A stretch of 45,182 nucleotides of DNA from NCBI GenBank assembly GCA_002314565.1, contig DCGL01000116.1:1-45182 (forward strand), read 5' to 3'. How positions within the stretch are numbered: the first letter of the stretch is position 1; each line of letters opens with the position of its first letter. The notes beneath the pieces were generated by a model, which saw only the letters and a list, made by a program, of their open reading frames with translations, did not search any database and was not told the origin of the DNA. Origin of the DNA: Clostridiales bacterium UBA1779. GTDB taxonomy: Bacteria > Bacillota > Clostridia > Oscillospirales > CAG-272. Both the position numbers and the translations under genes were made by a program. Below, in pieces: positions 4,577 to 34,800 of this stretch.

Positions 4577-4752
4577 AAAAATCAGCCCAAAGAAAAAAAC
4601 ATCTCAGTAACTCAGAAACGACAAACACAATAATTCATCAAGAGACACCAAAGAAGCAACGCCTTCGGTTTCACAATAAGTTATCAATATTCCGAAGCCT
4701 GCCGGCAAAGGAAAAGATAAAAATAAAAAGTTTCAAAACAAGGAGAAACAAA

Positions 4753-5853
4753 ATGAAGCACCTCAAATCAAAACTGATTTCCGCTATCGCAATGCTTGCA
4801 GTAGCCGCTGTAATGATGACATCCGCCACTTACGCTTGGATGACCATTTCAACCAACCCCGAAATCTCTGATATCAAGGCAAACGTTGTCGCCAACGGAA
4901 ACTTTGAAATCGCCCTCGACGCCGGTTCAATGACCAAGCCCGGCGCTTCAACAACCAGCGATGCCGGCAAGAACGAAACCTGGGGTAATCTCGTAGACCT
5001 CAAGGGCGCATTCCAGACCTCTTCCGGTGGAATCGCAACACTTCAGCTCAAGCCCGTAGGAATCATCAGCTCTGCCATCACCGTTCTTGACAGCTCCGGA
5101 ATCGCCAACAGCTCAGGCGTTGTAGTATTCCAGTATCCCGAATACGGTAAAGACGGTAGAATTTCCAAGCTCACAAACCTCAACAGAGTCCGTGCAACAG
5201 ACGGTGCTGCCGACAACTTCAAGGATCTCGGCGGTGTATATTTCTACACAACATCCAGCGCAGTTAAGTCTTCCGGTATTTCCGACATCAGCTCCAACGA
5301 AGTTTATGCCGTAGAAATCGACTACTGGCTCAGAACCAATGCCGAAAATTCTTCCGCCATCACACTGGTAGCTCCTTCCTCCGGAATCAGCTCCAGCTCA
5401 ACACCCGACTCCGGTGTTTCAAGATCTGAAGACGCTGCCGATACATACGCCGGCGAAAACGGTCTCGGCTCATTCATCAGCATTGATACAGTTACAATCC
5501 TTCTTGCCGATACAACCGATAAGAAAGTATACGAAGCTGTTCCTTCTGCCATCGCTTCTTCATCCTTCTACTCCCTCGCTCTGAAGGAAGTTGAATGGAA
5601 AGAATCTACCAAGACATACGAAGTCAAGTCCGGCGGAATCGAATACATCAAGCTCGACAAGGACGAAGCCAAGCTTATCAGAATGTACATCTTCATGGAC
5701 GGTGCCGTTCTTGAAAACTCCGATGCAAAGCTTACTATGACTGAGTTCACAATGAACGTACAGTTCACAAGCAACAAGGAACTCACCGCTATGGACGTTC
5801 CCATGACTGATTACGACAGAGCCTCTGCCATCTCTTCCTCCGCTGCATGGTAA
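4753..5853 (+). CDS. Group-A SipW-cognate-type secreted protein 2; candidate major fibre subunit (TasA/camelysin-like candidate)
   Basis: I prefer the ATG at 4753 because a strong SD (CAAGGAGAAAC) lies 6-8 nt upstream. The leader is MKHLKSKLISAIAMLAVAAVMMTSATYA followed by WMTISTNPEISDIK. The protein is Ser/Thr/Ala-rich, and by eye its codons are more C-ending than those of its neighbours. Two hairpins follow the gene. The ORF track start at 4573 (ATGA overlap with the upstream stop) would add 60 basic residues, encoded by A-rich sequence that looks intergenic. Confidence 0.8.
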   Translation: MKHLKSKLISAIAMLAVAAVMMTSATYAWMTISTNPEISDIKANVVANGNFEIALDAGSMTKPGASTTSDAGKNETWGNLVDLKGAFQTSSGGIATLQLKPVGIISSAITVLDSSGIANSSGVVVFQYPEYGKDGRISKLTNLNRVRATDGAADNFKDLGGVYFYTTSSAVKSSGISDISSNEVYAVEIDYWLRTNAENSSAITLVAPSSGISSSSTPDSGVSRSEDAADTYAGENGLGSFISIDTVTILLADTTDKKVYEAVPSAIASSSFYSLALKEVEWKESTKTYEVKSGGIEYIKLDKDEAKLIRMYIFMDGAVLENSDAKLTMTEFTMNVQFTSNKELTAMDVPMTDYDRASAISSSAAW

Positions 5854-8915: not shown

Positions 8916-9641
8916 ATGAACACAACAACCGAAAAAAACAAGAACAGTAAATCCGGAAAAGTGGGCAACATCATCGTTGACGTCATCCTTGTGCTTGCAA
9001 TTGCATTCTTTGCCGTCGTCGGATATTCTGCCTTTACGGCTCAGACCGGCGAGAGCGTTCCGAATTTCCTCGGCTTGAATATGTCAAAGGTACTGACAAA
9101 TTCAATGGAGCCCGAATTCTCAGCAGGCGATATGATTTTCAGCCGTACCGTAAAAGACGCTTCAAAGCTAAAGGTAGGGGACGTCATTTCATTCTGGACG
9201 GTAATCAACGGTGAAAAGGTTATCAATACCCATAGAATCGTTGAAGTTCTTGACGGAGGAACATTCAGATCTTTCACCACAAAGGGTGACGCGAATCCTG
9301 TAAACGATACGCTGACCGTTCATGAGAACAGCGTTATCGGTAAATACAGCTTCCATATCAGCGGCCTGGGCACTGCATTTGACTATCTGCAGACCTCGCA
9401 GGGCTTTCTGATTGTCATCGTTATCCCGGTGGCTGTGTTCTTCCTCTGGCAATTGATTCAGTTCTTCAGAGCGCTCTTTGCATATCAGGCCGAAAAAGTA
9501 AAACTTGCGTATGCGGCAGAGCACGGAATCAGAGTACCGACAGAAGACGAAGAAGGCTCGGGAAAAAGCGGCTCTGAACAAAAAAACGCTGTCGCAGACG
9601 GGGACGGAAATCCCGGAAAAGACACGGAAAAAACTGACTGA
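8916..9641 (+). CDS. sipW: Signal peptidase I, archaeal/ER type (SipW-like), with C-terminal charged tail
   Basis: It has an N-terminal TM (IIVDVILVLAIAFFAVVGY), the catalytic Ser box LTNSMEPEF, the His box NTHRIVEV, TTKGDANPVND, and a second TM (FLIVIVIPVAVFFLWQLIQFF). An acidic tail of about 57 aa follows. SD: GAAAGGTG. Confidence 0.85.
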   Translation: MNTTTEKNKNSKSGKVGNIIVDVILVLAIAFFAVVGYSAFTAQTGESVPNFLGLNMSKVLTNSMEPEFSAGDMIFSRTVKDASKLKVGDVISFWTVINGEKVINTHRIVEVLDGGTFRSFTTKGDANPVNDTLTVHENSVIGKYSFHISGLGTAFDYLQTSQGFLIVIVIPVAVFFLWQLIQFFRALFAYQAEKVKLAYAAEHGIRVPTEDEEGSGKSGSEQKNAVADGDGNPGKDTEKTD

Positions 9642-14156: not shown

Positions 14157-14984
14157 TTGAAACGCAGGACAGTCAAAAAAATAATATCGGCCGCAGTGAC
14201 TGTACTGCTTATATGCGCAACGGTGCTGTGCTTGTCCGCAATAATAGGAAGCTTGCTCAATGACGACCCTTCCGTTTTCGGATTCCGTGCATTTTACGTA
14301 CTCAGCGGAAGTATGGAGCCAACAATTCACGAAAGTGCTCTGGTGCTTGTAAAACGCTCGTCTGTCTATGAAATCGGTGACGTGATTACGTTCACGTCGA
14401 AGAATCCCGAAATATCCGGGGCTCCGAACACGCACAGAATCGTTGAGATTATTCAGAACGGAAAGAAAACGGAGTATATCACAAAGGGCGATGCAAATCC
14501 GACACCGGATGAAGAGCACGTTCTGGACTCCGAAATAATCGGACGTGTTGTATTCCATACCGGAGCCGTTGAATGGCTCGGAAGCTTTCTGGAATTTCTA
14601 ATGACAACCAAGGGATTTATGCTTATTGTGGTAATCCCGATTGTGGCAATCGTAATTTCCTGTCTCAGAGATTACGTCAAGGCTTACAAGGAAGCACTTC
14701 AGAAGGTACGCGAAGAGTATGAAAAACAATTGGCAGGGCAGTCTGCCAATGCTGAAAAAAACACGGATAATTTCAAAAACGAAAAAATCCCCGCAACAAC
14801 AGAAAACACTGAAGCTGCAGTCACAGAAATGCAGTATAATAACAAAAATACGGTCGGAAAACCCAAATCCGACACACAAGAAACCGACGCCCCGCAGTCT
14901 GAAGGAATGACGGGAAATAAAAAAGCCGATGGCAGAGAGGCCGGAAGCTCTGACGGAAAGGAATCGAACCATGAAGGACATTAA
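14157..14984 (+). CDS. sipW: Signal peptidase I, archaeal/ER type (SipW-like), with long C-terminal tail
   Basis: The start is TTG, 10 nt after GGAG. It has an N-terminal TM (IISAAVTVLLICATVLCLSAII), the Ser box VLSGSMEPTI, the His box NTHRIVEI, ITKGDANPTPDE, and a second TM (FMLIVVIPIVAIVISCL). A polar tail of about 107 aa follows. The 3' end overlaps the next gene by 14 nt. Confidence 0.85.
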   Translation: MKRRTVKKIISAAVTVLLICATVLCLSAIIGSLLNDDPSVFGFRAFYVLSGSMEPTIHESALVLVKRSSVYEIGDVITFTSKNPEISGAPNTHRIVEIIQNGKKTEYITKGDANPTPDEEHVLDSEIIGRVVFHTGAVEWLGSFLEFLMTTKGFMLIVVIPIVAIVISCLRDYVKAYKEALQKVREEYEKQLAGQSANAEKNTDNFKNEKIPATTENTEAAVTEMQYNNKNTVGKPKSDTQETDAPQSEGMTGNKKADGREAGSSDGKESNHEGH

Positions 14985-16314: not shown

Positions 16315-17880
16315 ATGATAAACGGATACCGCAGATTCGAAAAAATCAGGCTCGTAATTGCCTGTGCGGCATTTTTGTGCGCTGTTGCCCTTCTTGTCTG
16401 CTACGCTGCCGTTTTTACCGTATCAAAATACAAAACCGAAATAGACGGATATACAAATTTTGAAATATCCTCATTCCATGCAATTCTTCTCGGCAATATG
16501 ACAAAAGAAGAAATAATGGAAACGTGGACCGATACGACCAAACAACTCACACTGTTCGGAGAGGAAGTATCGGTTGCCAATCTCTCTCCGGGAATGGAAT
16601 CCGCATGCATTCCGTTTTCCTTGTCGAACGGAACTTCCGTCGATGATATTTCGGGCATGGACTTTGAATTCACACTTCGCGTTCGCACGACAGGAAATAT
16701 TCCACTGACGTTCAGGCTTCTCTGGAAAGAAATCACCGAAATAAAGAATGCTTCCGGTCAGGTTATCGATACCGTTGAAACCGAGCATACTTACGTGACA
16801 AACGGTGAGTACTATCTCGAAGAAGGGGCGAAAGGCGATGCACCGAGATACATATACACTTTTGTTGAACAAAGGACGGACAACGGTATCACTTATACCG
16901 ACGATAATGAGCATTATTTCTATATGAGCGGCGGAACTCTCAGCGTTGAATCGTTTGAATTGCAGATGGACTGGCCTCTTGGAGTTGATGCCTACGGTGA
17001 TGATACAAACAGCTCGAAGTATATGAAAGAAGTTGACGTCATCGATATGCTTGCCATAATCAGCTCGAAAAACCGTTCCGAAACATATACCGGCTCATCA
17101 GGAACGCCGACATATTATTCTGACGGATATATTCTGGTTAAACGCGGAACAGGTAATTTCGGGTCCGAGACGGAGGGCGAAAGCTTTGTTCTTTCATTTG
17201 ATTTCAGAGCATTTGAAATTCAGAGCAGCGCGTCTGAATATACGGAATCTGATTATTCATTCGTTGTCGGAAACGGCAATGATATTTACAACGGCAGTGC
17301 AATATTAAATCCTACCACTTCTTCTTATACGAATTTCAAGCTTGAAATTGCCGTGCCGCTGACAGTGGATACACAAAGCAAGCAGGACAGTGTCAGAAGC
17401 TGTGCGATATACATTCAGGACGTTAATGACAGTAACGAAGACGGTGACAAAACCGATTATATTGAGATTACTTCAACCTCGATTTCGTACAGACTTTACG
17501 ATATAACCGACGATACATACGAAAGCTTTGAATCCAGAGCCGAGGCACTTGCTTATATCAATGATGCTGATTACGATTATGTGAAGTCAAATCTCAGAAT
17601 GTACAAGATTTACACACCTTCGGTGAACGACAATCAGGCACATTATTTTTCACTCAGTAATCTCGAAGCCGATGCTTCAATAAAGTATGACAGCCTGAAA
17701 TTCAAGATTCGTATGACGGGCAGCCCGATTACTTCCGTTACGGCGCTGGAAAACATTCCGAGAGTAGTTGTAACGGCATATTATGAAAATTCCGAAAGGG
17801 ATAACTCATCGCAGGGAACAACGGTTGATTCCGGTGCAATAGGATCCGGCGCGATTGATTCCGGTTCTGTAATCGGGTAA
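16315..17880 (+). CDS. Group-B SipW-cognate-type secreted protein 6 (divergent leader)
   Basis: An SD (GAAGGAGG) lies upstream. The leader is RRFEKIRLVIACAAFLCAVALLVCYA followed by AVFTVSKYKTEIDGYTNFEISSF. It also has LSPGMESACIPFSLSNGTSV. The C-terminus is a low-complexity Gly/Ser tail (SGAIGSGAIDSGSVIG). Confidence 0.7.
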   Translation: MINGYRRFEKIRLVIACAAFLCAVALLVCYAAVFTVSKYKTEIDGYTNFEISSFHAILLGNMTKEEIMETWTDTTKQLTLFGEEVSVANLSPGMESACIPFSLSNGTSVDDISGMDFEFTLRVRTTGNIPLTFRLLWKEITEIKNASGQVIDTVETEHTYVTNGEYYLEEGAKGDAPRYIYTFVEQRTDNGITYTDDNEHYFYMSGGTLSVESFELQMDWPLGVDAYGDDTNSSKYMKEVDVIDMLAIISSKNRSETYTGSSGTPTYYSDGYILVKRGTGNFGSETEGESFVLSFDFRAFEIQSSASEYTESDYSFVVGNGNDIYNGSAILNPTTSSYTNFKLEIAVPLTVDTQSKQDSVRSCAIYIQDVNDSNEDGDKTDYIEITSTSISYRLYDITDDTYESFESRAEALAYINDADYDYVKSNLRMYKIYTPSVNDNQAHYFSLSNLEADASIKYDSLKFKIRMTGSPITSVTALENIPRVVVTAYYENSERDNSSQGTTVDSGAIGSGAIDSGSVIG

Positions 17881-18039: not shown

Positions 18040-19680
18040 TTGAATGCGAGAAAAAGACGGAAACAGGCAATGAGAAAACAGAGAGAGACGGAAAAAGGAA
18101 AAAACAGAATATTCAAGCTTATGCTGACGTCACTTCTGTGCCTGTGTTTGCTTTTTAACTGCTTTACGGCAATTCTGTCGGCAATCGGACTGCGCAGTAC
18201 TCTCAACTGGCTGCCGGGGGCATTTATGACGGTTGACAGTGCGAGTATGCAGCCTGAACTCAGTATAGGCGACCTGATTTTTGTGTGGAAGGTTCCATTT
18301 GAAGAGTTGAGTGTCGGTGACACAGTTACCACATACAGAAACGGAAGTTATACAACACACAAAATAGTGCGTCTTGAAGACGAAAAAATAATCACAAAGG
18401 GACTTGTCAACGCAATTGAAGACAGTCCTGCTGAAGATACGGATTATTTTGCAAAACTGATTTTTTCAATACCCGGTGCCGGAGCCGCATATTCTGTTGT
18501 GTCATCCGGTTGGATGGCATTTCTGTGCATATGCCTGATTCTTGCCGCCTTCCTTGCACGCCCCGTATTCGAATACTGTATCAGACGTCAGAAGAAGCTT
18601 CGCGTAAGCCTGCTCAGAATCAGTTCCGCTTTGTGTGCTGCAAGCTTTATGCTGATTCCAAGCACGATGACTCTTGCAAAATTTACCGGAACCGTCGGGG
18701 CCGGTAAAACCGCCGCTGCTGCCGAGGTGAATTTCAGCAGCAATTATCTGACTGAAAACGGAAACATTTACGACATCGTAGGATGGGACGGAAGCGATTA
18801 CAAGCTTTTGGTAAAAATCAATAACTACGCCAACATTCTGAAATACAACGAAGAAGGCGTTGATCTGGGATATACGCTTGAGTATGAGAAAATTACCGAA
18901 CAAGGCGAGCAGACCTATCCTTTGGATTACACAATTTCCGTTGAGCCGATTGACGGTACATCAATTGATTCTTCCGGCAATGCGCATTCAATTGCGCCGG
19001 CATATACAGCCGAGGAACCTGTTGCAATAGTCAGCGGAGGAATTCAACTCGGAACGAGGAAAGGACCGTACTCAATTGAAGGCGGAGCCAAAACAGCTCA
19101 CTTTTTCCAGGTTACTGTCAATGCCAAAACTCAGAGCGGACTATCATTGTCTGAAGGAGATAAAGTCTGTTTCAGAATCAAGGCTTCCTCATTAATCGGC
19201 AGCGGTTATATATCCGATTTGTATGCGGATTTTACAATGACTGTTACGACAGCCAGTGAGTTTATCAAAAGCCGTTCGATTGAACAGGGAAACGGAGTTG
19301 CTCTTGTTAAATTCAATATAAAATCAGCCACACTGCTCGGACTTGCCTCTCAGGAAATCGTGATTAAATGGCAGAATGATATGCTTTATCCGAACATGTA
19401 CGAAACCAACCTGTGGAACCTGAGAGAAAACGGTCTCTGCACGGTTGACGAAGCAAATTGCGAAATGAGGTTTACCATGTCGGCAACGGCGAGTATGACC
19501 TTTGAATTCAACAAGTTTACCTCACGGCTTAACGATACCGTTTATCAGCGAATGAGAAAGTACGTGGAAAAAGACTCGTTGGGCCGCACTATACGGGAGT
19601 ATATAGAAATCGAACTGAATGATACCTACGATACCTTCCCGGATGGGGACGTTGAAATCATTCATGATGAAACCACATAG
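18040..19680 (+). CDS. Fusion protein: divergent SipW-like signal peptidase domain + internal SipW-type signal peptide + group-B substrate-like domain
   Basis: The N-terminal 190 aa or so contain a TM (LMLTSLLCLCLLFNCFTAILSAIGL), the Ser box VDSASMQPEL, the His box TTHKIVRL, ITKGLVNAIEDSP (the KGD(A/N)N box is degenerate) and a second TM (WMAFLCICLILAAFLA). Next come a basic n-region (RRQKKLRVSLLR), an h-region (ISSALCAASFMLIPSTMTLA) and KFTGTVGAGKTAAAAEVNFSSNY with about 330 aa of mature-like domain. The start is uncertain: TTG 18040 or ATG 18070. Confidence 0.75.
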   Translation: MNARKRRKQAMRKQRETEKGKNRIFKLMLTSLLCLCLLFNCFTAILSAIGLRSTLNWLPGAFMTVDSASMQPELSIGDLIFVWKVPFEELSVGDTVTTYRNGSYTTHKIVRLEDEKIITKGLVNAIEDSPAEDTDYFAKLIFSIPGAGAAYSVVSSGWMAFLCICLILAAFLARPVFEYCIRRQKKLRVSLLRISSALCAASFMLIPSTMTLAKFTGTVGAGKTAAAAEVNFSSNYLTENGNIYDIVGWDGSDYKLLVKINNYANILKYNEEGVDLGYTLEYEKITEQGEQTYPLDYTISVEPIDGTSIDSSGNAHSIAPAYTAEEPVAIVSGGIQLGTRKGPYSIEGGAKTAHFFQVTVNAKTQSGLSLSEGDKVCFRIKASSLIGSGYISDLYADFTMTVTTASEFIKSRSIEQGNGVALVKFNIKSATLLGLASQEIVIKWQNDMLYPNMYETNLWNLRENGLCTVDEANCEMRFTMSATASMTFEFNKFTSRLNDTVYQRMRKYVEKDSLGRTIREYIEIELNDTYDTFPDGDVEIIHDETT

Positions 19681-19803
19681 AACTGCGATATAAATGCTGC
19701 TCCGTAAAAATCCGGAGCAAGATGCTGCAGATAATAAAGTACAAAAATAAGCTTCAGAATGAAGAATGAGCTCTTCCGATGGAAGAAAGAAACGGTCGCA
19801 AAC

Positions 19804-22800
19804 ATGAAGAAAATCAGTATAAGGGAAATCAAAAATATATGCAGAAGAACGGGGGCATTTATGCTTGCCCTCTCTATGATAATTGCCGCAGTGCCTTCAG
19901 TATTACTGGAGGCTTTTGCTCTCGAAGGGGATTTTACGCCCTTTGAGGACTTCAAAACCGAGCATACCCCGATAATTACAGGGGATCAGTCGGATGCCGG
20001 TACTGAGGGAAACCCTTATCTGCTTGAAAACGAGGCGGATTTTGCAAAGCTTGCGGAAAACATCAACAAGTCAGAAGAGTATTCGAAAAAATCCGAAAAT
20101 CTTTATTTCAAGGTTATGTCATATGATGCCTGGGGCGAAGGACAGCCTCTGGAATTTACTGCAACAGGTGCAAATGCCGTATGCATTGGCATTGAGGGCA
20201 ATCATAGCCACTCGTTCAGGGGTCATATGAATCTCAATGGTGTTAAGATAAGAACCAACGGACCGCTTTTCGGCTCTCTCGGAAACGGCGCTGAAATTTA
20301 CGACGGTCAGATTGTACTTACCGACCTTGACGGTTCATCAGCTTACACAGATGATTCCAACTGGGGAGGACTTACAAAGACCGTAACTACAGACCCGGAG
20401 GCGGCAACTACCGTATCCATTCATGATATTTCCGTAAATCTTGACGTATCTCTCGATGCTGTTACCCTGCGGGCAGCCGGAGGTCTTATCGGACGTATTC
20501 ACAACAATACACTGAATACCCTTACAGTCAATCTCTATAATGTCAGTGCAATTCAGGCTCAGAGTGAAACCTTTAATTTTGAAGCCCAAGCCACCTATCT
20601 CGGCGGTATTGTGGGCGAAATATACAATGGAACGAATTATTCTGTCAATGCTTCGAGTGTCACAGTCTGTCTCGGCAGAACAAGCACCTCGAATGCGGAT
20701 ACCATTGGAGCAGCAGGAAGCTTCAAGAATCCGGTAGGATTTGTCGGAGGCATAATCGGAAAATCCAACAGAAACGTAACAATTGAAATAAACGCTTCCG
20801 TATTGATACCGACTCCTGTGTTTGTCACATCTGGGCGCGGTTATTACGGAATAGCGGCAGATCTCTGCCGCGGTCTTTGCTATGCTCAGGGCAATGCCGA
20901 ATTTTATTTCGGCGAAAGAAAACCGGAGAACAGAAAAACGGCTTCTGAGCTTCTGTATTTCACACCGACGGCGGGATATGCAACATTTGCGATAAACAAC
21001 GGAACCATGTATAACGGCTTAAACTTCAATCTTTCAATACAGGGCGACGGTTCCGAAGAGTATCCCTTCCTGATTGATTCCGCTGAAAAGCTGCTTATGC
21101 TGTGTGTGGGACTCAATACAAGAACACTGAATGTCCTTCGCCTTTTTGTCGGAGATTCGGATTCTGAATACCGCTCAAACAATGCCAAGTTAAATTATCT
21201 TCTTGGGGCAGAATACAAGATAATAGAAGATATAGACCTCAGGGGCACGGGCTTTGACGGTTTGGGTTATTATATTGATGATATTCAGGCAGCCGCCTTT
21301 ACCGGACATTTTTACGGGGCAAGCTCTACTCAGACAGGTATTTCGGGCTACCGTCCGACTATCAAATACAATATTGTGTCGGTTAAGGGATATAACGGCC
21401 TCTTTTCCATACTCGGTAACGGTTCATCTGTTGATAATATTAATCTGGAAGGCTCGCTTTTCTCAGCAGGAGCTTCAAACGTAGGTTCGCTTGCAGGTTC
21501 TGTCGGTTATCCTACGGGAAGCACAAATGTCAACTGTACAATTTCAAACGTATCGTCTTCCGTGGCGATTTCAAGAAACTGGACAACAACGTCCAACAAC
21601 GGCGGTCTTGTCGGCATAATAAATTTCTATAAAACCACGTCAAAATCTGCCGTCAGTTTTGTAAACTGCGAATTCAGCGGCAGTATCAGCACTTACGGTT
21701 CATATTCCGGGGGTCTTGTCGGACGTGTAAATGTTCCTGATCAGACCAGGAAATACAGTGAAACCTTCGGAACAGACCTTAACTTTATTAATTGTATCTG
21801 CAGCGGAAGTCTGACAAACAACTATTCGTCCACTGCGTATCTCGGCGGCTGCGTCGGCAGTTTCTATTCTTCAAATTCATACAAATCCTATAACAACAAG
21901 AGTCTGGCGCCCGGCAGCAACTATACGTTGAAATTCAATTCACTGCATCTGAATGTCGATGGATATACCTTCAGCGGCAATATCACGGTAACCAGTGCAA
22001 ATGCACATTCGGTAGGCGGATTTACCGGAAATCTGTCCGGTGTCGAGGCTGTATTTGACAATCTTATAATCGGAGGCACCGTAAGTGCAAGAGCAGGTTT
22101 TGCCGGAATAGCTCAATATGCAAGCGGCAAAATAACCGTTGAAGGGGTTACTATACACTCGAATGCACACTGGACGGTAAACGGCTGGTATTTCAGCGGT
22201 ATTCTTTTCGGAAGTGCCCCGACGGCTTGGATTGACATCAAGGCAAATTCATATTGCAACAATGCAACGACAGGATACGGTTCCGCATACGGAATCAACG
22301 CACAGAACGGGTCCTACTATTTCTCTGATATTGTCTCTTCCAACTTTGAGTCGTCCGGCTCGTATTACCGTTCGTCATACGTTCAGACCGGCGGTATCGT
22401 AAATATTGAAAACAACAGCGGCTTTGAAAATGCCACAACAGGAAAGAGCTCTGTTGACGGTACATACTGGAACAGATATTACAACGATATTAATCTGACT
22501 GATATTTCGGGAAGCGGTACCAAGGCAGATCCTTTTGTCATCGACAGCGTTGACAAACTGATTACCCTTCAGGTATTTATGTTTGCAAATCCCAATATTG
22601 CTTATTTGCTTCTCGATTATTTTGACGGTGCTGCCTACGGTTCAAACTATACCGTTATTGATAAGTGTATGTACCTCAAGAATGCAAATTACAGATTTGA
22701 GGGCACTCTCGACCTTTCAAACAAAACGGTATACCCCATTCCGGTTATAGGCGGAAATTATGACGGTGGTATTGTCGGGGCCGGCGGAAAATACACTGAA

Positions 22801-25800
22801 AACACGACGATTATTTTCCATTCACCGGAAAGCTCACAGAACAGAACAAGCTCTTATAAGGATATGCAAGGCGGTCTGTTTACCACGGTCAGCTCAATGA
22901 ATTCGACCGTCCCGATTCAGATCAAAGGCTTTACACTTACCGGCGCCGTAAACGGAACCGGGGATACTGCAGCCTTAATCTCCTCTTTTTACAACTACAA
23001 TAATAACACACTGTATACCGCTCATTACAACTATGGCGGATATGCCATATACAGCGGGAAAGTCGACGTGTCATATATCACGTTTGACAATATTACGGTA
23101 GGCTCTTACAACGATTATTCAGGACTCATTGCCGGCATTATCAACGGCGGTGACCATGATTTCCATGACCTGACTCTTAAAAACTGTACAACATCAAACT
23201 TCGCTGATGCTTTTGTCACCAAAGCCTATTCAAATTCCGGTCTGTATGAATTCCAGCGTATTGATTTTGCCGATAACAGCTGGCAGAATTTTGAAGTTGC
23301 CGTATTCTTCAATTATTTTGCGGAGGGTGTTGCTTATTATTACGATACCGAAGCAGGAGATTTAGAAAAATACAAATACGACATTCCGAAAACAGAGGCA
23401 CAGGCAGGTGCCGGAAATCCGTATAAGGCGCCCGAAGGTCCGAGCTCGGCAAAGCATATTTCCATAAATCCCGTTCTGAACTACATCACAATGGGTCTTG
23501 GCACCGATGCGTCGCCGTATATGATTTCCAAGGCTTCTCAGCTTTATGCCGTTGCTTCGGCAATTGCCACAAACGGCAAAACTCTCGGAAAAATTCTTCT
23601 TGAAATTCCCGGTGTAACCAAAGAAGACTTCGCCGCGATGACTGATGCTCAGCTCAGCGCCAAGGCTCAGGCGCTTGCCTCTGCAAGTTACGTACTGACA
23701 TCCGACATTGATTTTTCGTTCCTGAACGTAGATGATATAGATGCCGGGGACAGCAGCCAGACGCTCGAGGGCTTCCTCGGTATCGGAACCCTTGCAAATC
23801 CGTTCTCAGGCTCTTTTGACGGACAGGGATATACTGTCACTCTTGCGGACTACGATCAGGCTCAGAACAATTTCGCTCTCTTTACCTATGTCAGAAATGC
23901 GAAAATCAGAAATCTGACTGTGAAAACCGAAGCGGACGGTCTTCTGATTACTTCCCCGATAACAACGAATGAAATATATCCCAATTCGTCCAACTATTCA
24001 GGTGTTGTATGTGCGGTTATTCTCGGCGGAGACGTAGTGTTTGATAATGTAACCGCCAAGGGCGACGTCAAGCTTGACAGTCTCGCTGTTGAAAGAAATG
24101 CTTATATCGGCGGATATGCTGCGCGTATTGAGGCAGCTCTTGTTCAGCTTGTAAACGTTCCCGATGGTTATCTTGAGGATTTCAGAATATACGTTTGGGA
24201 TTCAGAGCACAATGATTACGCTATTGTTGCCGTGGATCCTGACGACGTTATTGCATCTGAGGTGGGCACGCCGTATATCTGTGACGATACGAGACTTTAT
24301 GCAGCCCTTTGTCCATATGTCGTTGACGGTCTTATTATGTATATGGGCGATGACCCGTATTCAAGCGTTGTATGGACGGGACAGAACGAATATAACGGTA
24401 AGGTCAATGTCCAGTTCAGTATTGACCTGAATAACAATTCCGAAGTGTATCCGAAGAATGATCTTGACAGCTCGAATCTTGAATACACTTATTCGATTAT
24501 GAACCGGGACGGAACTACACCTGCTATGGTAACCGACAAGCAGGGGAACGTGGGGTATCCCGTATATATTTCAAAGACAACCGGAGGAGAAACGACACAG
24601 GTTAATTCCGGTTTTATTGTCACGTCCAGCGGTATGATTATCGGAAGTCCGCTTGTCGGTGGAAACGTCAGCCTTTATGTTCGTATTGCTGTCAGAAACA
24701 CGGAAACCGGAAATACAATTTACAGAATCAGAAGCTTTACTTTTAACATAGAAAAGGCATCCTTCCCGCAACTTAATGTAAATACCACTTCCATTTCCAA
24801 TATCACATTCGCAACGGCTAATCCGGTAATAACGTATTATAACTGGCCGTGTCCTCAGAGTTATTATTTCCCGACAGCCGGAAACTATGATATAGCGACA
24901 TCTGATGCCGAAATTCAATATGAAGTTTTAGCCGGTACAGATATAATTTCCGTTGTTGACAACCATATCGTCATAAGCGGTGTCGGAGACGTTACACTGA
25001 GAATTACCAAGGGCGAGGATTCGGCATATCTGGAATCAATGACCGAGATTTCATTCACTGTCCAGAAAGCCACTCTTCACGTTTATGCCATAACGGAAAG
25101 CTGGTACTACGGAGCTTTGCAGGCACCTGACATTGTTGCCAAGGTCTATATCGACGGACTCAAGGGGTATCTGAAAGCCGACATGTACTCAACGGCATAT
25201 AACAGATATCAGGATGCTCTCGAGAACTATAATTCGAAATCGATTGAAGCCGAACAGCTTCGCGCTCTTGCAGATGCTGCCATTGGCACAGATGAATATG
25301 AGGCACTTAATTCTTCTGCGACGGCTGTCGAAGAGCCTCTTTTGAATTTGTATTACACATATAAAAATCTGGAAAACAGTTATAACAATGCCGTCGCGAA
25401 TTTCCGTGGATATGAAGCAAACAGTACGACCGAACCCGATTTTGTCAATGCTCTGAATATTGCGGGATTTTCGCTCAACGGTCGGGGCTTTATGCTTGAC
25501 AGCCGTCTTGAGGTTGCCGACAAGACTACGATTCAGGTCGGAGATTATCCCGTTACTCTGCTGTCCCTTCAGATTTCCGGAAGCGATGACAGTACAGCCG
25601 CATACTATGACGTAGTATATCACAACGACTTTGTCCGTGTCAGACGTAAGATTGTAACAAACGAAGATTTCTGCATTTACAACAAGGATGAGTATCTTGC
25701 CTATCTTGCCGGGAGCAGTTCGATTATGCCGGAAAACCTTGCTGCAACGAAGGCAAACGGTGACTGGTACAACTGCGATATCGTTATTGTTCCGAATGCG

Positions 25801-28800
25801 ACCAATCCGGACAGCAAATACAATAAAATACTTGATTATTCATATATTCAGGAACACAATATCAACGAGAATTTTTACTATCAGTATTATCAGCCTTATC
25901 TTATCATTAACGGAGATACTGTATTAAATCAGGGATTTATTCTCGCCTCTGATGAGCTTGGTTATAAATCGGACGCCTTTGTTTTGCTTGTCCGTATAGA
26001 CAAGCTCAATCCGACAGCAAGCGTTCGCTATGTCGGAAGCTACAATACAACCGAATTTACGGATTTTACAAGCCTTGCAGTTTACAGAGCTGCATTCAGG
26101 GCGGAATTCTCGAAGGCCGATCCGACGGCAGCTGACGTTAACAGCAGTACGTCAGACGGTGTCAGCAGCGGTGTTGACCGCATTCTGGTACTGACTATTG
26201 ACGGAACCGAATCCTTTATGCAGGGACATGCGCTTGACAATCAGGCATGGATGTATGCTCCCGAGTCTGCATGGAAGACAATTACCGTTGCCAGCGCCTC
26301 TGCAAGTGATTACTTTGTGAAAATTACCGAAGAAGCAAAGACAGGTGCATTCTTCCTGAGATCAATAGACAATGCCGGAAACGTTTCCGATGTAGCGTGG
26401 CATACTTTTGCGGAAGATACCGAGACAGGAGTACTTAACGGAAAGTCCCCCTGGTATCTGCTTGACTCAAGTGCCCCTGAAATCACGTTCACCTACGTTC
26501 CTTCGGGCGCCGTGGCTTATCAGAAGGATGACATCGAAACCGACTATTCTCTTGTCACAGACATATCCTCACTGACGGAAGCCGTATGGCTTGCATATGA
26601 CTATGTCGAACAGGATATTCAGTTTACTGTAAATGAGAACATTTCAGGACTGAAATCAGTATATTGGACGCTTGACAACGGAGCACGGCATAATCTTGAA
26701 TTTACACCGAACAATACTGGAGAATATAACTTTTCAATTCCGGTTACCGATGAATACGGATTTATCAATCTGGATAACGGTGAACGAACTATCAGAATTT
26801 TTGCCGTTGATAAAGTCAACCACACCAAGGAAATCAAGATAACTATCCGCAAAGACAGTGCAGAACCGGAAATAATCATTGAAAAACACTGGGATGACGC
26901 CGTAAACAAATATGAGCAGACAAGACAGTTTGATATTCTGCTCGTAAACGATACTGACGAGGCTTCGCCTCTTCAGTCAATCAAGGTTACAAGCAATTAC
27001 AACAAAGATATTTACTATTTCAGTCAAACTGCAACCCAATCATCGGCGACAACCTATGCCAAATTCAAAGATGACGGTGAGGGTGGATTACAGCTCGATT
27101 ATACGTACAAGATTTATACCCTGCCAATGCAGAGTCGTTTTGTCGGTTCTGACGGAATAACCTATTATAAGGCTGAATTTGTCGCAACGTACTGCTCACC
27201 TCTCGTTGAGTATACAGTTGAAGTCAAGAGAAAAGCAAGAACAACGGTTGAGTATGAAACGGAGTATCATTCACAGACCGTTACCGTCAACAATGTCAAT
27301 TACCGGGAATATGTCGGAACCCAGTCACAGACGCTCGGACTCTATGTGACAAGCTCGGCAACTGTAGCGGTTCCTTACGTTGACAGCTATAAGCCGAAGC
27401 TGATTGTCAGTGCATATGAGGAAAAGAACAGCACCAACAAGGGCAATTATGTCAGCGGAACATGGACGACAAACGATATACGTTTTGTTTTCGAAAATGT
27501 CGGTACAAACTTCGGCAAGACAGAGCTTCACGGGTATACGGTTGACAGCTCGGGAAATCGGATTGAAGAATATTTTAATGCATCGGTTTCTTCAACTGCC
27601 TGGCTGATTGATGAAATCAACAGAAGCGGTACAATTCTCTCAAAACCTTCAATTCAGAATTATTACGTAGCTGCCGACGGAGCGTTTCTTGAAAAAACGG
27701 TAACCTTCTATCTTTTGACTCAGTCGGGAAAGAAGTCAAATGAAGTCACCTATACCATACGTATTGATAAAGAAAAACCAATAATCCAGGAATACGGAAC
27801 GGCCGACACCACGTTTATCAAGAAATTGATAAGCCAGGCCACCTTCAACCTGTTCTACAACAACGTTGATATCGACGTCACCGTACAGGACCTGGGAAGC
27901 GGCTTCGACAACAAGGACGGCAGTATTGCAGTCGGTAATATAGGTGCGGCTCAGGGCTCCAATTACAGCAACGTCATAATGACGCTCTATCCCGTACAGC
28001 TCAGTGAAAGCAACAGCTATAAGGGTAACGAGAACACTTATACGGTTCAGAGCTTCACCCACGAAAGTCAGAAAATCGCAATAAAATATACAGACAGCAC
28101 TAAAGCCACGGCATATATGAAGATATATGCCTCTCAGAGCAGAATCAAGAAGAACTCTGACGGAACGTATACCATACGTTTCGTTCTGCGCGATGGCTTT
28201 GATTTCAGAGGTAATATTTCTGTTGAAGCGATTGATGCGACCGGAAACTCGGATACTCTTTCAATGAGAGCAACCGAGCTTGTATACGTCGACCACCGTA
28301 AACCGAAGCTCGATATTACGTATTCTGAGCCCAACGAAACGCTGTATTCGTCCGGCATCTGGGCAAATTCCGACATCATTGTAAATCTTCAGAATATCCG
28401 TGATGAGGGACTTTTCCCCTCTGAAATCAAGGAAATTCAGTGGTATATTTCAGACAGCAGCGATTTTTCAGTGGCTGCCGGAGAAACAATAAACGTTATT
28501 CCGATAGGCTCGTCCGGGGTTGTTCTTGATACTTCTTCGGGAATCAAGAAATACAGTTACAGCTTCCTCGCATCCCTCGCAGGTTCACACACGGAAGATG
28601 GCAGCCGTTGGCTCGTTGTAAGAGTATACGATAATTCCGGCAACCTTACGACAGTTACACGAAAGCTTGAAAGAGACAGTTATGCCCCGACGATTACGTC
28701 CTTCGGCGTTAAAAATGACACCGAGAACAAAATTGTCCCGTCATCTGCGGCAGACACCTATACCGTCGGGTCCGATGCCTTCTTAATGGCAGGGGATATT

Positions 28801-31800
28801 CTCGAAATCGGGTTTACAAAGCCTAATACCAACTCGCCTCTGTGGCTCAATGTCAATTTCGTATACACTGATCCGAACAACGGAACACAGAAAACGGCAG
28901 ACATCAAGCTGCCTCTTGAATATTATGCTTCACTCGGATACTCGTATCCGGGGGGGAGCCTTGTTTCCACGGCCGAATTCGAGATTCCTCACTTTGCAGT
29001 AAACGGAAACGGTGAGCTGACTCCCGTCTGGGGTAACAAGGTGCCGGGGGATGATTATATCAGCCCGAACGGAGTATATACATTCACTCTGTGTGCAGGT
29101 AATAACAACCCTGCAGTATCCGACAGCATTGCGTTTGATTCCATTGTCAACGGACAGGCAAGAATCGATGACGATCCGCCTCTGGATCCCATTGTCGAAA
29201 ATTCATCGGCTTTCCTTGTATGGCACAATTTCGACAGACTTGATGACGTTGAAATCGGTTATGAAGAAACCTTCGGTTCTCAGGAACGTCTGGAAGCAGC
29301 CGTAATATCAGGATATGTAAGCGATCCCTCATACATCGGTTCTTCAGCTGCTTTTGTTACACTTACTCAGTATTCGGAGTGGCAGGGAAACAGAAATATC
29401 ACATTTACCCTGACAAAAGAAGCAATTTTTGCTATGCTTATGGGGTCACTTGATATATCCAATGCATATAATCCTTATACTCAGATATACACTCTGGCTC
29501 TGCGGGTAACCGACCGTGCAGGCGGAAAGAGTAACGTTATTCTTCAGACAATCAAGATAGATAACCAGATACCGTGGTTTGAAAACACAAGTGAAACCCA
29601 GAAACCCCTGAGCTTCTGGAACAGTGCAAACAAATCCGGAAATGCAAACGCTTATCTCGGTCGTCCGTATATTGATTACGGATACGACTATTATCTTCGT
29701 GTGTCAAATGCGGTTTACGTATTTGCATACGGAAAAGACTTATCTCAGAGTGTTCAGTATTTCGGTGATCAGGCGGGACAGATAAAAGTATATTGGTCCA
29801 CGTCGAATCCCGGTTCATATGTCGGTCACGAAAGTGAATGGACAGAGCAGATTCAGAATGCTCTGACGGCAACGGCAGCAGCAAACGGTGAAACGACCCT
29901 GTATTACGTCGTTGTCGACGAGGCTTTGAATGAAAGCCCGGTAATGACATGCCGCATACTGCTTAATGCCGCTGTGCCTGCGGTTAACAGCATTGATGTA
30001 CAGCGCGAAGAAAACAGATATAATTCCGCGCTTGTCAGTGTTGATGATATCACGTACGGACGTTCTGCCGCCGGTGTAAATGACTGGGACTTCAGATACG
30101 TCAAATTCACAATCAATGCAAGTGCCACCGATTCTTCTGGAATAATTGACCATTATTCTTATCAGTACAGCGTTGACGGAGGCAGTTATTCACAGTGGAT
30201 AGATATCGTTCCCTCGTCTGCCGCCGGGGATAAGTATACCCTTGTACTTGATGAGGAATTCGGTGAAACACTGAACAGCATAAGTGTAAACGGAAACGTG
30301 AACTTCAAGTTCCGTGCCGTTACACTGACAGGCGCAACCAGCAGTGACTATCCGATTCTGAACATAAAAAAGGATGATATTACACCTGAAATTGTCGTGG
30401 GCGTCAGTGCAAATGCAGTTGACTGGACAAATGAAGACGTTGTATTCACTCTTTCCAACAGTTCTGCCAACAAGGCTCCCGTTACTTATTTCGTAAAAGT
30501 CGGAGCCGGCGAATACGTTGCTCTTACGGAAAACGGACAGCATGTCGTATATGACAGCGATCACAATCTGTATGCCGTCTGGGACAGTGCTCAAAGCAAG
30601 CTGACATTCCCCTGCGACGCTTACTGCCTGCCCGTAGAGTTCAGAATTGAAACCGATGCCGGTCTTTTCGATAACAGTTCAAGCACTCTTCTCAAAATAC
30701 AGAAAACAACAGGTCACCTTCCCGTTATCAACCGTGACCTTTATCTTGACGCTTCGACAGATCCCAGTTCTTCGAGATACTCGATAAGCGTTGCATCGGG
30801 AGCAATCCATACCTGGTTCAACACCTGGTACAATTCCGGCGATTCAGCTCCCGTAATTTCCGTACTCAGTTCGGGAATTTTCTTCAGCGCCTCAACAGCC
30901 CCCGTATATCTGAACTGGAGTATTGACGGTGTCGCGTCAAGTGCTCTGATTTCAAGCAGTGCGTCCGGTGACGTTGCAGTATACGATTTCTCGGATAACG
31001 GAACCATCCGCGAGGATGCGGTTCACAATATTTCCGTATGGCTCAGTGATGCTGCCGGAAATATCGGAGCACACACGAACGTTACGGTCAGCGCTGACTT
31101 TACGGCTCCTTCTTCAGTGGGAATCAAACGGGCTGCTGAAACCTGGGCCGGAAAGATATATACGGTTCTCAATGACCTGACCTTCGGTATTCTCTTCAAG
31201 AAGAGCTCGAACGTTGCTCTGAAGGTCGAAACCAATGCTCTCGTATCCGGTGTCGGATCCATCTGGTATATCGTCGATACAAGTGCGGGCGCACTGGCTC
31301 TTTCTCAGAACGGCAGAAGTGCCGAAGATCCCGGTTGGATTTCATATTCAGAGAATACCGGTATAGCCTTCTCATCCAATGACACAGGTGTTGTCTGGAT
31401 TAAGGTTGTTGATAAGGCCGGCAACATTACGCTTGCTTACACCGATATCACAATGTTTGAATCCGAAGCTCCCGCTGTCAGCTTCACAGTAGATGAAAGC
31501 ACAGCGTTTGTTCAGGACAGTGACAACTCGCAGATTACAAATGACGGCGGAAACACTTACTACGGTGTTGCACCTCTGCTGAACATCCATGCACAGGAAA
31601 ACACAAGCGACTCGATTCCCGATTCCGGTTTATGGTATATTAAGGTTGAGGAAAAGAATCTTTCAACAAACGCAATAGTTTCAACGACGGAGCGTTATCT
31701 TATCAACGCAACGGAGAGCATAGATTCTTCGGCGACAATATTTGCAGAAGTCGGCAGTATGACTGAGGACTTCAGTTATACCGTACGCAATGAAGGCAAT

Positions 31801-34800
31801 ATCAGAGTAACAGTCACAGTCCGCGACCGAGCAGGAAATGAAAGCACCGCAACTGCCGATTATCTTATCGATACTCACGATCCCGCTCTCAACGTATCTC
31901 TTTATTCTGATAGCAAGACTTACAATTACGTCAATGACGATATTGAAAGCGGCTGGACTTCCAAGAATGTCACGGTAAGACTGGCTTCTCCGGGCAACAT
32001 ATCCCCGGTATATTACAGCTATACAACTGACAACGGTCAGAACTGGGTTGACCTGAGCGCCGGTACGACACAGTACGTTATTTCCACTGACTACAATGAG
32101 AGTGTGATTTTCAAGGCGACCTCACTGTCAGGTCACGTTACAAGTTCTGCAGTATATGATATCAAGATTCAGAAGACTGCTCCGAGCCAGATTTACGGAT
32201 ACCTTGACAGCTCGTCTGTACAGATTTTCGGAACTACGTCAATCTATGTCAACAGCAGCGGAGTCGATGAAATCAACGTCCCCGATTCACAGAGCGGCTG
32301 GTACAATAAGGATCTCAGCGTAGCTCTTACAGCCGTATACAACAGGCTGCGTATGGAAGGTTCGAACGCAAGAGCTCAGGCTCCCGTTACCACATACTTT
32401 ACTTTGCGCCGTGCAGACAACGATACGTCCACAGACACTTCATTCGTTGCAAGCGGAAGCATTCACGTGGTCTGCCTTCCCGGCTCCGGCGGAATCGAGC
32501 AGTTTGCCGTTACCCTGAACGGTGACGATACCGTTTACACTTCAATTGACAAGGCGGTTGAAAGATTTGCTCTTGTCAACAGTTCCGCAACGGTGACCGA
32601 CGGTGTATATATGATAAGCGTATATGCAAAGGACGCCGCAGGCTCAACGACAAACCAGGATATTCTTCACTTCAAGGTTGATACCACAGCCCCGACAAAC
32701 GGCTCAATGGTTGAGACTGTCAAGACCGGTACACCGAGTATTCTTCGTCAGATTCTCAATACACTGACGTTCAATCTTGCTTTCCAGTCAACAATTGAAG
32801 TTCAGGCAAGTGCCGATTTCGACATTTCCGGAAGAAGATATCTTCAGTATATGGAAGTGCCCGTCAGCACGCAGGAACAGTACGATTATCTGACCTCTCT
32901 TGAGGATTATTCGACAATCGATATTTCTCAGTTCCCCGGGCATTCGGAATGGACAAATGTATCCTCAGAAGACAAGATGTATCACGTCGGTACCGGCGGC
33001 TTCCTCGGTATTTATCTCTTAAAGGCAACCGACCAGGCAGGAAACGTCACAATATTTACGTCTGACGGCGTTATTATTGATATGACCTCCCCGACCATCA
33101 ATATCACACATACTTACGGACGTCTGGTGGCAACGGGAAGCTCAGCTGTGGTTTCTTCGGACGGCATTACGGATGAGCCTTTTGAGGTCGCGAATGACAC
33201 AAGCTGGTATAGGCACGGCAGAATCAGAGTCGTTATCAATGAAGACGGCTCCGGTGTCGATTATGTCCAGGTTTCAAAGGTCGATTCCCGCGGAACAACC
33301 GTCAACGTAACAAAGATTTCCGGAAAGCAGCTGGCATATCTTAACGGTCAGGATGAAACCAATGCGGCTTATGCTTTCGGTGTATACAAGAACAATCCGA
33401 ACGGAAGCAGTCTCATACTCAATTACAATACAGAGCATGATTACTGGGCCGAGCGCGATAGTCTGGTATACAATACTGCCAATGATACGATAGATGACAA
33501 CGGAGTATATTCATATACATTCACGGTATATGACCGTTCCGGCTTCGTGGGAACGACACTCACACTGAGCAACATGCTTCAGATAGACAATGCCGAACCG
33601 AAGCTTGTTGTCACACCGCATAATTATATTGACAATACATGGACAAATGAAACCGTAACGTTTACACTTAACGTTTCGGCAATCACAGCCGGAAAGAGCA
33701 TTTCTTCCCCGATTACTTTCTGGTACAGCAATGACAGCGGAGCAAGCTGGACTCAGCTTGCCGCCGATGCAAATAACCGCACACAGGCAACGCTTGTCCT
33801 TGACAGTGATACTAATGCAAATTACAAATTCAAGGCCCTTGTCGGCGGTCAGGCAACCGGTGCTCTGACAGATGTCAGCGCAAACTTCGTCTGCTACAAC
33901 TGGTCTGACCCGGTAAATCAGACCGGTGAAACCACTTTCAATGTAAAAATTGAAAAGCTTGATGCAAACGAGATAGTATGGCAGAACAGCGCTGTTCGGC
34001 TTTACAATGCCTCGACAGACGAGCTTATGTCAGACAGCTTCGAAAATGCCTGCTGTTCAGGAAATGAATTCTGGTACAGAATCGATTCAGAGGATACGGA
34101 GCACACGGTTCTCGGTTCTTCCTCCAATCTCAGGCTCGAAGTATCTCTGCCTCAGCCTCTGAGCACAGCTCATGCTCCGATGGAGACTGCATACACCCTG
34201 TATTACTATGCCGACAGAGACAAGCCGGATTCGCTGAGTAACAGACAGATTGCCGCATCAGGCGTCTGGGGTTCGTTTACTGAAACGGTGCTTGCCGGCG
34301 TACTTACTTTGTCAAGCGACGGTATTTACGAATTGTATCTTGAAACCCGCGACGCAACGTATGAGACGAAGACCCGCGGACTGATTTCAACGTACAACAA
34401 CCGTACGCACACGTACAGTCAGGTTAAACTTGACCGTGAGCAGCCGCTGGTAACCGGTATTTCAATCAATAACGTCAACTTTACTCCTCTTGCATCAATA
34501 GTCAATTCGCTGACCTTCGGCGTCTTCTTCAAGAGAGACATTCAGCTGAACGTAACATCAACGTATGGGGCATCCTGCCGCGCGGCTCTGTATTATCAGT
34601 TTGTAAATCAGCCTTCCGGTTCAGTCGATACTCCCGCTTATAATGATTCCGACTGGATTGCATTTGCAGCCGGAGCAGATAACGTTTCAGTCAATATGCC
34701 TTCGGATTTCCGCGGCGTCGTATTCATCAAGGCAGTTGACAATGCAGGAAACGAATCTATCGAATGGATGACTGCCGGTCTTGTATCCGACGGTGTCGAG

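Follow-up and report, generated by a model that had tools for sequence, protein, structure and literature searches.

SipW of Bacillus subtilis (tapA-sipW-tasA) is a signal peptidase I of the endoplasmic reticulum (ER)/archaeal type that has an N-terminal and a C-terminal transmembrane (TM) segment and specifically serves the secreted proteins of neighbouring genes. The TasA site recognized by SipW, T-W-A|A-F, has small residues at P3 and P1 and an aromatic P2' residue, a combination that is poorly handled by LepB-type enzymes. In the Clostridium perfringens sipW-bsaA-bsaB-bsaC genes, a SipW-type peptidase is likewise encoded together with secreted matrix or surface proteins that require processing. 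In viral polyproteins (e.g., those of orthoflaviviruses), a TM segment is followed by an internal signal sequence that is cut on the exoplasmic side by the host signal peptidase, which separates two products. The human enzymes SEC11A and SEC11C (PDB 7P2P, 7P2Q and 9RJB) act within a four-subunit complex on free preproteins. Here we describe a gene in which an enzyme of this type and a preprotein form one chain. It is located at positions 18070..19680 (+ strand) of a 45,182-nucleotide stretch, called the window below, which is contig DCGL01000116.1 of Clostridiales bacterium UBA1779 (assembly GCA_002314565.1), and it encodes a SipW/Sec11-type signal peptidase I, an internal signal peptide and a passenger with tandem beta-sandwich domains. 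In contrast, SipW, TasA and TapA of B. subtilis are separate polypeptides. The C. perfringens proteins are encoded by separate genes, with TasA-like, isopeptide-linked substrates, no giant adhesin and no internal leader. SEC11 carries no fused substrate, and the peptidase of the viral systems is a host enzyme, whereas in the fusion the enzyme is itself the upstream product. In full-text literature searches we found no report of a type I signal peptidase that is naturally and covalently joined to a preprotein by way of a complete internal signal peptide; this enzyme-plus-substrate fusion is real and undescribed.

The open reading frame (ORF) is unbroken over 18040..19680 (+ strand) and is listed with a TTG start and a length of 546 aa. 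The ATG at 18070, selected by two independent gene callers, is the more likely start and gives a product of 536 aa. The TTG at 18040 is not preceded by a Shine-Dalgarno-like sequence, and exact protein look-ups found no match for products starting at the TTG or at Met28, whereas the product of ATG 18070 was matched. Residues are numbered from this ATG throughout; the numbers of an earlier reading made from the letters of the window (the sequence-only reading) are higher by 10. The identical 536-aa product is encoded on a 61.6-kb JGI contig and in the Logan assembly of the Sequence Read Archive run SRR5323900. An exhaustive HMMER search covering 1.84 billion representatives yielded 34 matches at E≤1e-30, and about 35 full-length cluster representatives (466-691 aa, 23-47% identity to the window protein) could be aligned across both halves in one stretch. 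Because dozens of diverged relatives share the same design, the fusion is genuine and not an assembly error. One fused relative with approximately 30% identity to the window protein (P0013) is encoded in the metagenome-assembled genome (MAG) GCA_965318625.1, in a locus that is collinear with the window and upstream of a 10,663-aa gene. The family is so far known solely from uncultured Clostridia in gut and rumen-type metagenomes, and the GenBank label of its member NCC66583.1 reads 'signal peptidase I [Clostridia bacterium]' and nothing more. A scan of genome contigs with peptidase-derived patterns recovered only stand-alone SipW-type genes, none of them fused (from Ruminococcus, Eubacterium, Clostridia MAGs, one archaeon and one Dehalococcoidia MAG), and two scans of metagenome contigs with passenger-derived patterns recovered no relatives. 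When the full protein was compared with the PDB by phmmer, only spurious matches to cGMP kinases were returned. The representative of the 90%-identity database cluster that contains the 536-aa protein is an ENA sequence of 50 aa that is unrelated to it, which is why the window protein is hidden from a word-indexed homolog search. Neither a transcription terminator nor a promoter was found between the fused gene and its neighbours.

In a collinear locus, the position immediately upstream of the gene for an adhesin of about 10,000 aa is found in three states. The gene is continuous in the window and in locus L020. A split pair is present in L026 and L027, where a peptidase of 173 or 180 aa is followed, after a gap of 26-88 nt, by a separate passenger gene (341 or 342 aa) with its own Met, n-region and leader; a ribosome-binding site (RBS) is visible in the gap of L026. 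Only the passenger is present in L017 and L025, which have two peptidases in the locus and 37-50 nt between the ortholog of the upstream neighbour (window gene 16315) and the passenger gene. The Rosetta-stone comparison that had been suggested by the sequence-only reading was thus positive, and the finding of fused, split and passenger-only states at one orthologous position bears out its view of the fusion as a natural one. On the hidden Markov model (HMM) of the N-terminal half of the fused family, the peptidases of the split pairs score 162-173 bits, compared with approximately 70-104 bits for enzymes of the type of the two other peptidases in the window (Sip1 and Sip2, see below). Both halves of L026 are nearest to the same fused relatives, P0034 followed by P0033. 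In a neighbour-joining tree of the passenger, the solo proteins P0038 and P0049 are nested inside the fused clade, P0049 being 67% identical to the C-terminal half of the fused P0022, and P0065, P0097 and P0121 form an outgroup that consists of solo proteins. The congruent nearest relatives and the passenger tree indicate that the two halves co-evolve and that there has been more than one change between the fused and the split state. Outside the window, the protein P0115 appears to combine a SipW peptidase of the canonical KGD type with another beta domain, which has approximately 150 aa and no Pfam family; its junction consists of a basic loop, a hydrophobic segment and 'FSKY', and it may be a second, independent enzyme-substrate fusion. 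Another protein from outside the window, P0059, has two peptidase domains in tandem.

Hydropathy analysis of the window protein shows three hydrophobic segments (residues 22-40, 149-167 and 179-197). The first is the N-terminal membrane anchor of the peptidase, TM1 (residues 22-40, 18133..18189, + strand), which falls within a helix spanning residues 2-39 in the AlphaFold2 (AF2) model, with a predicted local distance difference test (pLDDT) score above 90. It is followed by the extracytoplasmic catalytic domain (residues 49-135, 18214..18474, + strand), supported by the TIGR02228 match, the alignment with SEC11A and family conservation, and by TM2 (residues 147-171, 18508..18582, + strand; hydropathy and an AF2 helix over the same residues), the counterpart of the C-terminal CTS helix of Sec11A. 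The N-terminal half matches NCBIfam TIGR02228 (archaeal/ER-type signal peptidase I, MEROPS S26B) over residues 42-167 with 52.7 bits (E=4.2e-14), a marginal pass at a cut-off of 51.85 bits, versus 95-102 bits for the two paralogs in the window. The Bacillus SipW equivalog NF046067 (cut-off 190 bits) is failed by the fusion with 18.9 bits and also by both stand-alone paralogs with approximately 97-100 bits, so that, judged by these scores, 'SipW-like' describes the fused protein and does not state family membership. In a PDB search, a profile of the three window peptidases had SEC11A and SEC11C as its best solved relatives (E=2e-11), and there was no bacterial structure among the matches. Homology of the N-terminal half to signal peptidase I, on which the sequence-only reading had depended, is well founded on the TIGR02228 and SEC11A matches.

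The motifs SAS59MQP, TH97KIV and KGLVNAIED118 were confirmed in the window protein. Cryo-EM and mutagenesis of the human complex have identified Ser56, His96 and Asp122 as the catalytic triad of SEC11A, whereas Asp116, the 'KGD' Asp, faces the protein core, forms a salt bridge with Arg97 and has a structural role; Asp116 mutants are destabilised and keep their activity. The Asp common to the three window peptidases falls opposite Asp122 of SEC11A in the HMM alignment, the numbering having been verified on the SEC11A sequence, and Ser59 (18244-18246), His97 (18358-18360) and Asp118 (18421-18423, all + strand) of the fusion match the SEC11A triad residue for residue, with His and not Lys as the partner of Ser; these assignments are supported by both the alignment and conservation. 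The salt-bridge pair, which SEC11 keeps, is exchanged in the fusion: Lys98 (18361-18363, + strand) takes the place of Arg and Leu112 (18403-18405, + strand) that of Asp, a loss of both the KGD Asp and its Arg partner that also separates the window protein from B. subtilis SipW. Among 36 fused proteins the Ser is kept in 36, the His in 35 and the Asp122 equivalent in 36, and the KGD Asp is missing from 35, with L, I, T, V, M or C in its place. The signature KG[L/I/T/V/M]xNxxxD is found in 35/36 and also in complete stand-alone enzymes of the subfamily. In the fused family member P0029 an Arg replaces the catalytic His (ATRRII) while Ser and Asp are retained; this protein may be inactivated. P0043 was dropped as a stand-alone peptidase of the fused subfamily, being truncated by a contig end. 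The sequence-only reading correctly saw intact Ser and His boxes. Its 'degenerate catalytic box' was a misassignment, since the lost Asp corresponds to the structural Asp116 and the triad Asp118 is kept in every fused protein; as far as can be judged from the alignments, the missing KGD Asp is a subfamily trait under purifying selection and not a sign of decay.

Directly after TM2 the chain continues with a cytoplasmic basic loop, the n-region of the internal leader (residues 172-183, RRQKKLRVSLLR, 18583..18618, + strand), and with the internal signal peptide (18619..18678, + strand), which consists of an h-region (residues 184-196) and a c-region (residues 197-203, PSTMTLA). In the window protein these parts read RRQKKLRVSLLR183, the hydrophobic stretch ISSALCAASFMLI, and PSTMTLA203|K204FTGT. 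The predicted scissile bond, Ala203|Lys204, lies between nt 18678 and 18679, within the site P197-S-T-M-T-L-A203|K204-F205. A site logo was built from 41 sequences (36 fused and five solo), with positions counted from this bond. Position P-21, which is Arg183 in the window protein, is R/K in 35/41, P-20 to P-7 form a hydrophobic core of 14 aa (13 aa in the window protein) with Ser at P-12 in 32/41, and Pro occupies P-6 in 29/41. Thr is found at P-3 in 40 sequences and Ser in one; P-2 is unconstrained, with nine different residues; P-1 is occupied only by small residues (Ala 35, Thr 3, Ser 2, Gly 1). Downstream of the bond, P+1 is Lys in 35, Arg in five and Gln in one, never Pro, P+2 is Tyr in 40 and Phe in one, and P+7 is Asn in 31/41. 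In the fused proteins the distance from the basic P-21 residue to P-1 is constant at 20 residues, while the loop between TM2 and the leader varies from approximately 10 to approximately 48 aa. These loops are rich in K/R throughout the family (mean 6.6 K/R vs 2.3 D/E), which agrees with the self-consistent topology proposed in the sequence-only reading, with a cytoplasmic n-region. A homologous element forms the N-terminal leader of the stand-alone passengers P0038, P0049, P0065, P0097 and P0121 and of those of L026 and L027, and by its sequence it would work autonomously as an N-terminal export signal.

Published rules for substrates of the signal peptidase complex (SPC) are an h-region shorter than 18 aa, a c-region of 5-7 aa, small P1 and P3, a free P2 and Pro at P4-P6. 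The internal leader has all the hallmarks of a Sec-type signal peptidase I substrate, i.e., a basic n-region, a short h-region, Pro, small P3 and P1 residues and no Pro at P1', and the earlier description of a complete internal signal peptide is upheld by the logo, which extends it to a conserved element with a canonical -3/-1 site. At the motif level T-x-A|K-[YF] shares the P3 Thr, the P1 Ala and the aromatic P2' with TasA T-W-A|A-F, and an aromatic P2' is the hallmark of TasA and SipW and makes a poor substrate for LepB-type enzymes. The P1' residue differs, being Lys here and Ala in TasA. Judged by its sequence, the leader is probably cleaved.

The passenger, with a predicted mature length of 333 aa (18679..19677, + strand), begins with a conserved N-terminal peptide, KF..(A/G)..N...A...NFSSNYL (residues 204-227). 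An AF2 model of the whole fusion, based on an alignment of 36 sequences, has a mean pLDDT of 82 and shows, after the TM1 helix, a beta-rich peptidase domain (residues 50-134), the TM2 helix, a helix over residues 181-201 (the h-region of the leader), a disordered linker (residues 202-217, pLDDT <50) and an all-beta part, approximately residues 222-517, that forms two beta-sandwich domains. Modelled alone, the passenger reached a pLDDT of 79.8 and a predicted TM-score (pTM) of 0.74. Foldseek comparison with the PDB returned only generic two-domain beta-sandwich proteins at query-normalised TM-scores of at most 0.26, comprising Fab fragments, the cohesin dyad 3L8Q, the MSCRAMM adhesins SdrG, Bbp and ACE, the pilins BcpA, CsuA/B and FimA, and TTHA1873; TasA was not among the top 50 PDB matches of either model. 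The passenger matched no Pfam or NCBIfam family, Peptidase_M73 included. The models thus support a surface protein with two beta-sandwich domains, and one that on their evidence is not TasA-like. The sequence-only reading had seen a resemblance of the mature N-terminus to those of neighbouring secreted proteins. In hhalign comparisons this was retained for the 16315 family, where it is restricted to the leader and approximately 15 mature residues (41 columns, E=3e-4, probability 39%), and was not significant for the 14929 family (E=0.12). No homology of the globular domains of the passenger to either neighbour was found by BLASTP or hhalign.

In the reading that we favour and hold to be rather more probable than its competitors combined, the gene is a conserved fusion of a competent, dedicated signal peptidase with the neighbouring preprotein, whose leader would be cut to free the passenger. 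Two neighbouring genes, one for an ER/archaeal-type (SipW-like) signal peptidase I and one for the preprotein that lies directly downstream in relatives, would have been joined. TM1 would cross the membrane from in to out and place the peptidase domain outside the cell, TM2 would return the chain to the cytoplasm and into the short basic loop, and the internal leader (Arg183, the 13-aa h-region and the c-region P-S-T-M-T-L-A) would cross from in to out again and thereby export the passenger. We infer from the sequence that cleavage takes place at Ala203|Lys204, in cis or in trans. A cut in cis would be the simplest route; action in trans, with Sip1, Sip2 or a second copy of the fusion as the enzyme, would be equally compatible with the data. 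Cleavage would yield a surface protein of 333 aa that starts with the conserved K-[YF] and probably works together with the giant adhesin encoded immediately downstream, and a three-helix peptidase to which its own cleaved leader is still tethered. In the 2.6-Angstrom structure of the substrate-bound SPC, the h-region docks between TM1 and the C-terminal CTS helix of Sec11A, and a c-region beta-strand of at least five residues leads to the active site. In the fusion, the helix that precedes the internal leader corresponds to this CTS helix, and cleavage in cis is geometrically natural because a loop of 9-16 aa joins the two as a hairpin. By analogy with this structure cleavage may be predominantly in cis, although we rate this at somewhat below an even chance; in the passenger-only genomes cleavage in trans must occur.

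An artefact, i.e., a sequencing or assembly frameshift or a missed stop that joined two adjacent genes in this contig, was considered with regard to the split pairs known in relatives and to the two further assemblies of the protein, which are both 100% identical to the window and may therefore come from one shared sample. This explanation is effectively refuted. The same uninterrupted architecture, with its junction conserved, is seen in approximately 35 diverged homolog clusters that stem from many independent runs and MAGs, and the linker is in-frame coding sequence without a remnant of a stop codon, an RBS or a start codon; inspection of the junction, which the sequence-only reading had named as the place where a frameshift or missed stop might hide, found the frame unbroken. 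The further proposal of the sequence-only reading, a possibly inactive pseudo-peptidase, would make the first half a dead enzyme, leave the cutting of the leader to the two canonical paralogs alone and give the membrane stub a role as a docking or nucleation site. It would account for the replacement of the KGD Asp and of the Arg after the catalytic His by Leu112 and Lys98, for the gap between 52.7 bits and the 95-102 bits of the paralogs on TIGR02228, for P0029 with its missing catalytic His and for the passenger-only loci, which manage with two peptidases. Against this stand the retention of the triad (36/36, 35/36 and 36/36) among proteins only approximately 23-47% identical to the window protein, the structural role of Asp116 in SEC11A, mutation of which leaves activity, and the KG[hydrophobic] signature, which is family-wide (35/36) and shared with complete stand-alone enzymes of the subfamily. 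A pseudo-peptidase is unlikely because the Ser/His/Asp triad is conserved and only a structural salt bridge has been replaced, and that across the family; the complete scenario of a dead enzyme with a docking stub appears quite improbable, and the conserved residues indicate that the peptidase half is probably active.

The leader might instead remain uncleaved as a signal-anchor, a third TM segment by which the beta-sandwich part stays attached to the peptidase as a substrate-recruiting, chaperone-like or anchoring module; the attached ectodomain might, for example, form a membrane base for the giant adhesin or for other secreted proteins of the locus. Retention of the fusion in approximately 35 clusters, which suggests a benefit of linkage, speaks for such an anchor, as do the confident AF2 helix 181-201 packed after TM2 with an undocked linker behind it, the conserved P+1 to P+7 positions, which may have another role, and the precedent of B. 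subtilis TapA, a cell-anchored accessory protein in a SipW system. However, a core of 13-14 residues with Pro at P-6 or P-7 has the length of a signal peptide and not of a TM segment, the restriction of P-1 to Ala/Ser/Gly/Thr and of P-3 to Thr/Ser with a free P-2 fits the S1 and S3 pockets of a peptidase, and the same element is the N-terminal leader of the split and solo homologs. We regard an uncleaved anchor as rather unlikely. The favoured reading of a competent peptidase and a cleaved leader also has points against it. The TIGR02228 threshold is cleared only marginally, AF2 leaves the c-region undocked from the active site, and the loci L017 and L025, with two peptidases each, show that the passenger can do without the third one. 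No SipW-cognate signal-peptide model in NCBIfam (TasA-type class, TIGR04088) matched any leader of the locus, even at E≤10. Conservation from P+1 to P+7 is unusually strong for an ordinary signal-peptidase substrate and may reflect a function unrelated to cleavage. If cleavage in cis is fast, the benefit of fusing operon neighbours is hard to see, and the data all come from metagenome assemblies of uncultured Clostridia, so that activity and cleavage are inferred. A more specific version of the favoured reading, about as doubtful as the uncleaved anchor, is a single-turnover self-processor, which would cut itself in cis and whose tethered leader would then fill the window between TM1 and TM2, leaving a switched-off or gated platform in a 1:1 ratio with the passenger that organises export or anchoring of the giant adhesin.

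In the systems described so far, dedicated SipW-type peptidases and their neighbouring substrates are separate proteins. If processed as proposed, the fusion would be a natural tethered enzyme-substrate pair for the study of recognition by bacterial ER-type peptidases and a test case for cleavage in cis and for the fate of a leader that is unable to leave its enzyme, and the variation between fused, split and solo states would show what the fusion adds. Should the single-turnover version be true, it would be the first natural enzyme-substrate (zymogen-like) type I signal peptidase, and bacterial enzymes of the ER type could be studied structurally on a tethered complex that comes ready-made. 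The alignment with SEC11A also corrects a tempting mis-annotation: an enzyme of this class that lacks the 'KGD' Asp has not thereby lost its catalytic Asp.

The fused gene is part of a conserved gut-Clostridia locus of approximately 60 kb without functional annotation, which encodes several secreted proteins whose leaders fall into two classes, together with two or three peptidases, an AAA+ protein and an adhesin of approximately 10,000 aa. The adhesin gene (19759..45182, + strand), recognized by an open frame at 19738-45180, gene calls and synteny, runs off the window; of its protein, which is 10,425 aa long on the full contig, the window covers more than 8,470 aa. No Pfam match was found in its first 4,000 aa, and the remainder contains nine MBG_2 (MBG, YGX-type) domains and weak Ig-like and CopC-like matches. 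In related MAGs, the gene behind the fusion or passenger gene is always an ortholog of the adhesin gene (9,220-10,663 aa), with synteny in L017, L020, L025 and L026. L017 is collinear with the window gene for gene. Its proteins correspond, in order and with window genes named by their first position, to 5981 (370 aa), 7222 (428 aa), Sip1 (223 aa, 47% identity), 9835 (539 aa, 72% identity), 11500 (679 aa, 58% identity), Sip2 (224 aa, 39% identity), 14929 (232 aa), 16315 (472 aa), the C-terminal half of the fusion (345 aa, 30% identity) and the giant protein.

Two stand-alone SipW-type peptidase paralogs with canonical THR...KGD motifs are encoded on the + strand of the window: Sip1 at 8916..9641 (TIGR02228, 94.7 bits) and Sip2 at 14157..14984 (TIGR02228, 101.9 bits). 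The leaders in the locus are of two classes, T-x-A-W-[FYM]-[ST] in proteins 4573, 5981, 7222 and 14929, and T-x-[AGS]-K-[YF] in protein 16315 and the passenger. With two leader classes and two or three peptidases in the locus, each peptidase may have a substrate class of its own. The upstream neighbour of the fused gene (16315..17880, + strand, 521 aa) was assigned by leader comparison across four loci and by hhalign; its leader, TVSKY, belongs to the T-x-[AS]-K-Y class of the fusion's leader. The end of the Sip2 gene (14157-14984) lies 14-56 nt inside the following gene, which starts at 14929 or 14971 and runs to 16266; this suggests translational coupling of the peptidase with a substrate. 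The 414-aa protein encoded at 3332-4576 has a cytoplasmic N-terminal extension of approximately 135 aa, followed by a hydrophobic segment that ends in GGIYAWSAIS, a late or internal leader of the T-x-A-W class, and the protein encoded at 4573-5853 has a basic extension of 60 aa ahead of its leader; from their sequences, leaders placed late or inside the chain may be a recurrent feature here.

A TM protein with an AAA_5 (McrB-like) domain is encoded at 9847-11478 and, with 72% identity to a distant MAG, is among the best-conserved genes of the locus. It matches the PADLOC candidate family PDC-M26A (1.9e-38), but a reading as a defence system was set aside, the gene being a fixed, highly conserved member of the secretion locus in four MAGs. 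The 817-aa protein encoded at 11500-13953, likewise among the best conserved (58% identity to a distant MAG), contains a long E/K/A-rich coiled coil, which explains the AT skew of 0.57 seen at 13-14 kb. The upstream edge of the locus holds genes for a TetR-family regulator (363-947) and an HD-GYP-type (HD_5) protein (1770-3284); both are candidates for regulating the adhesin and secretion genes, with a possible link to cyclic di-GMP.

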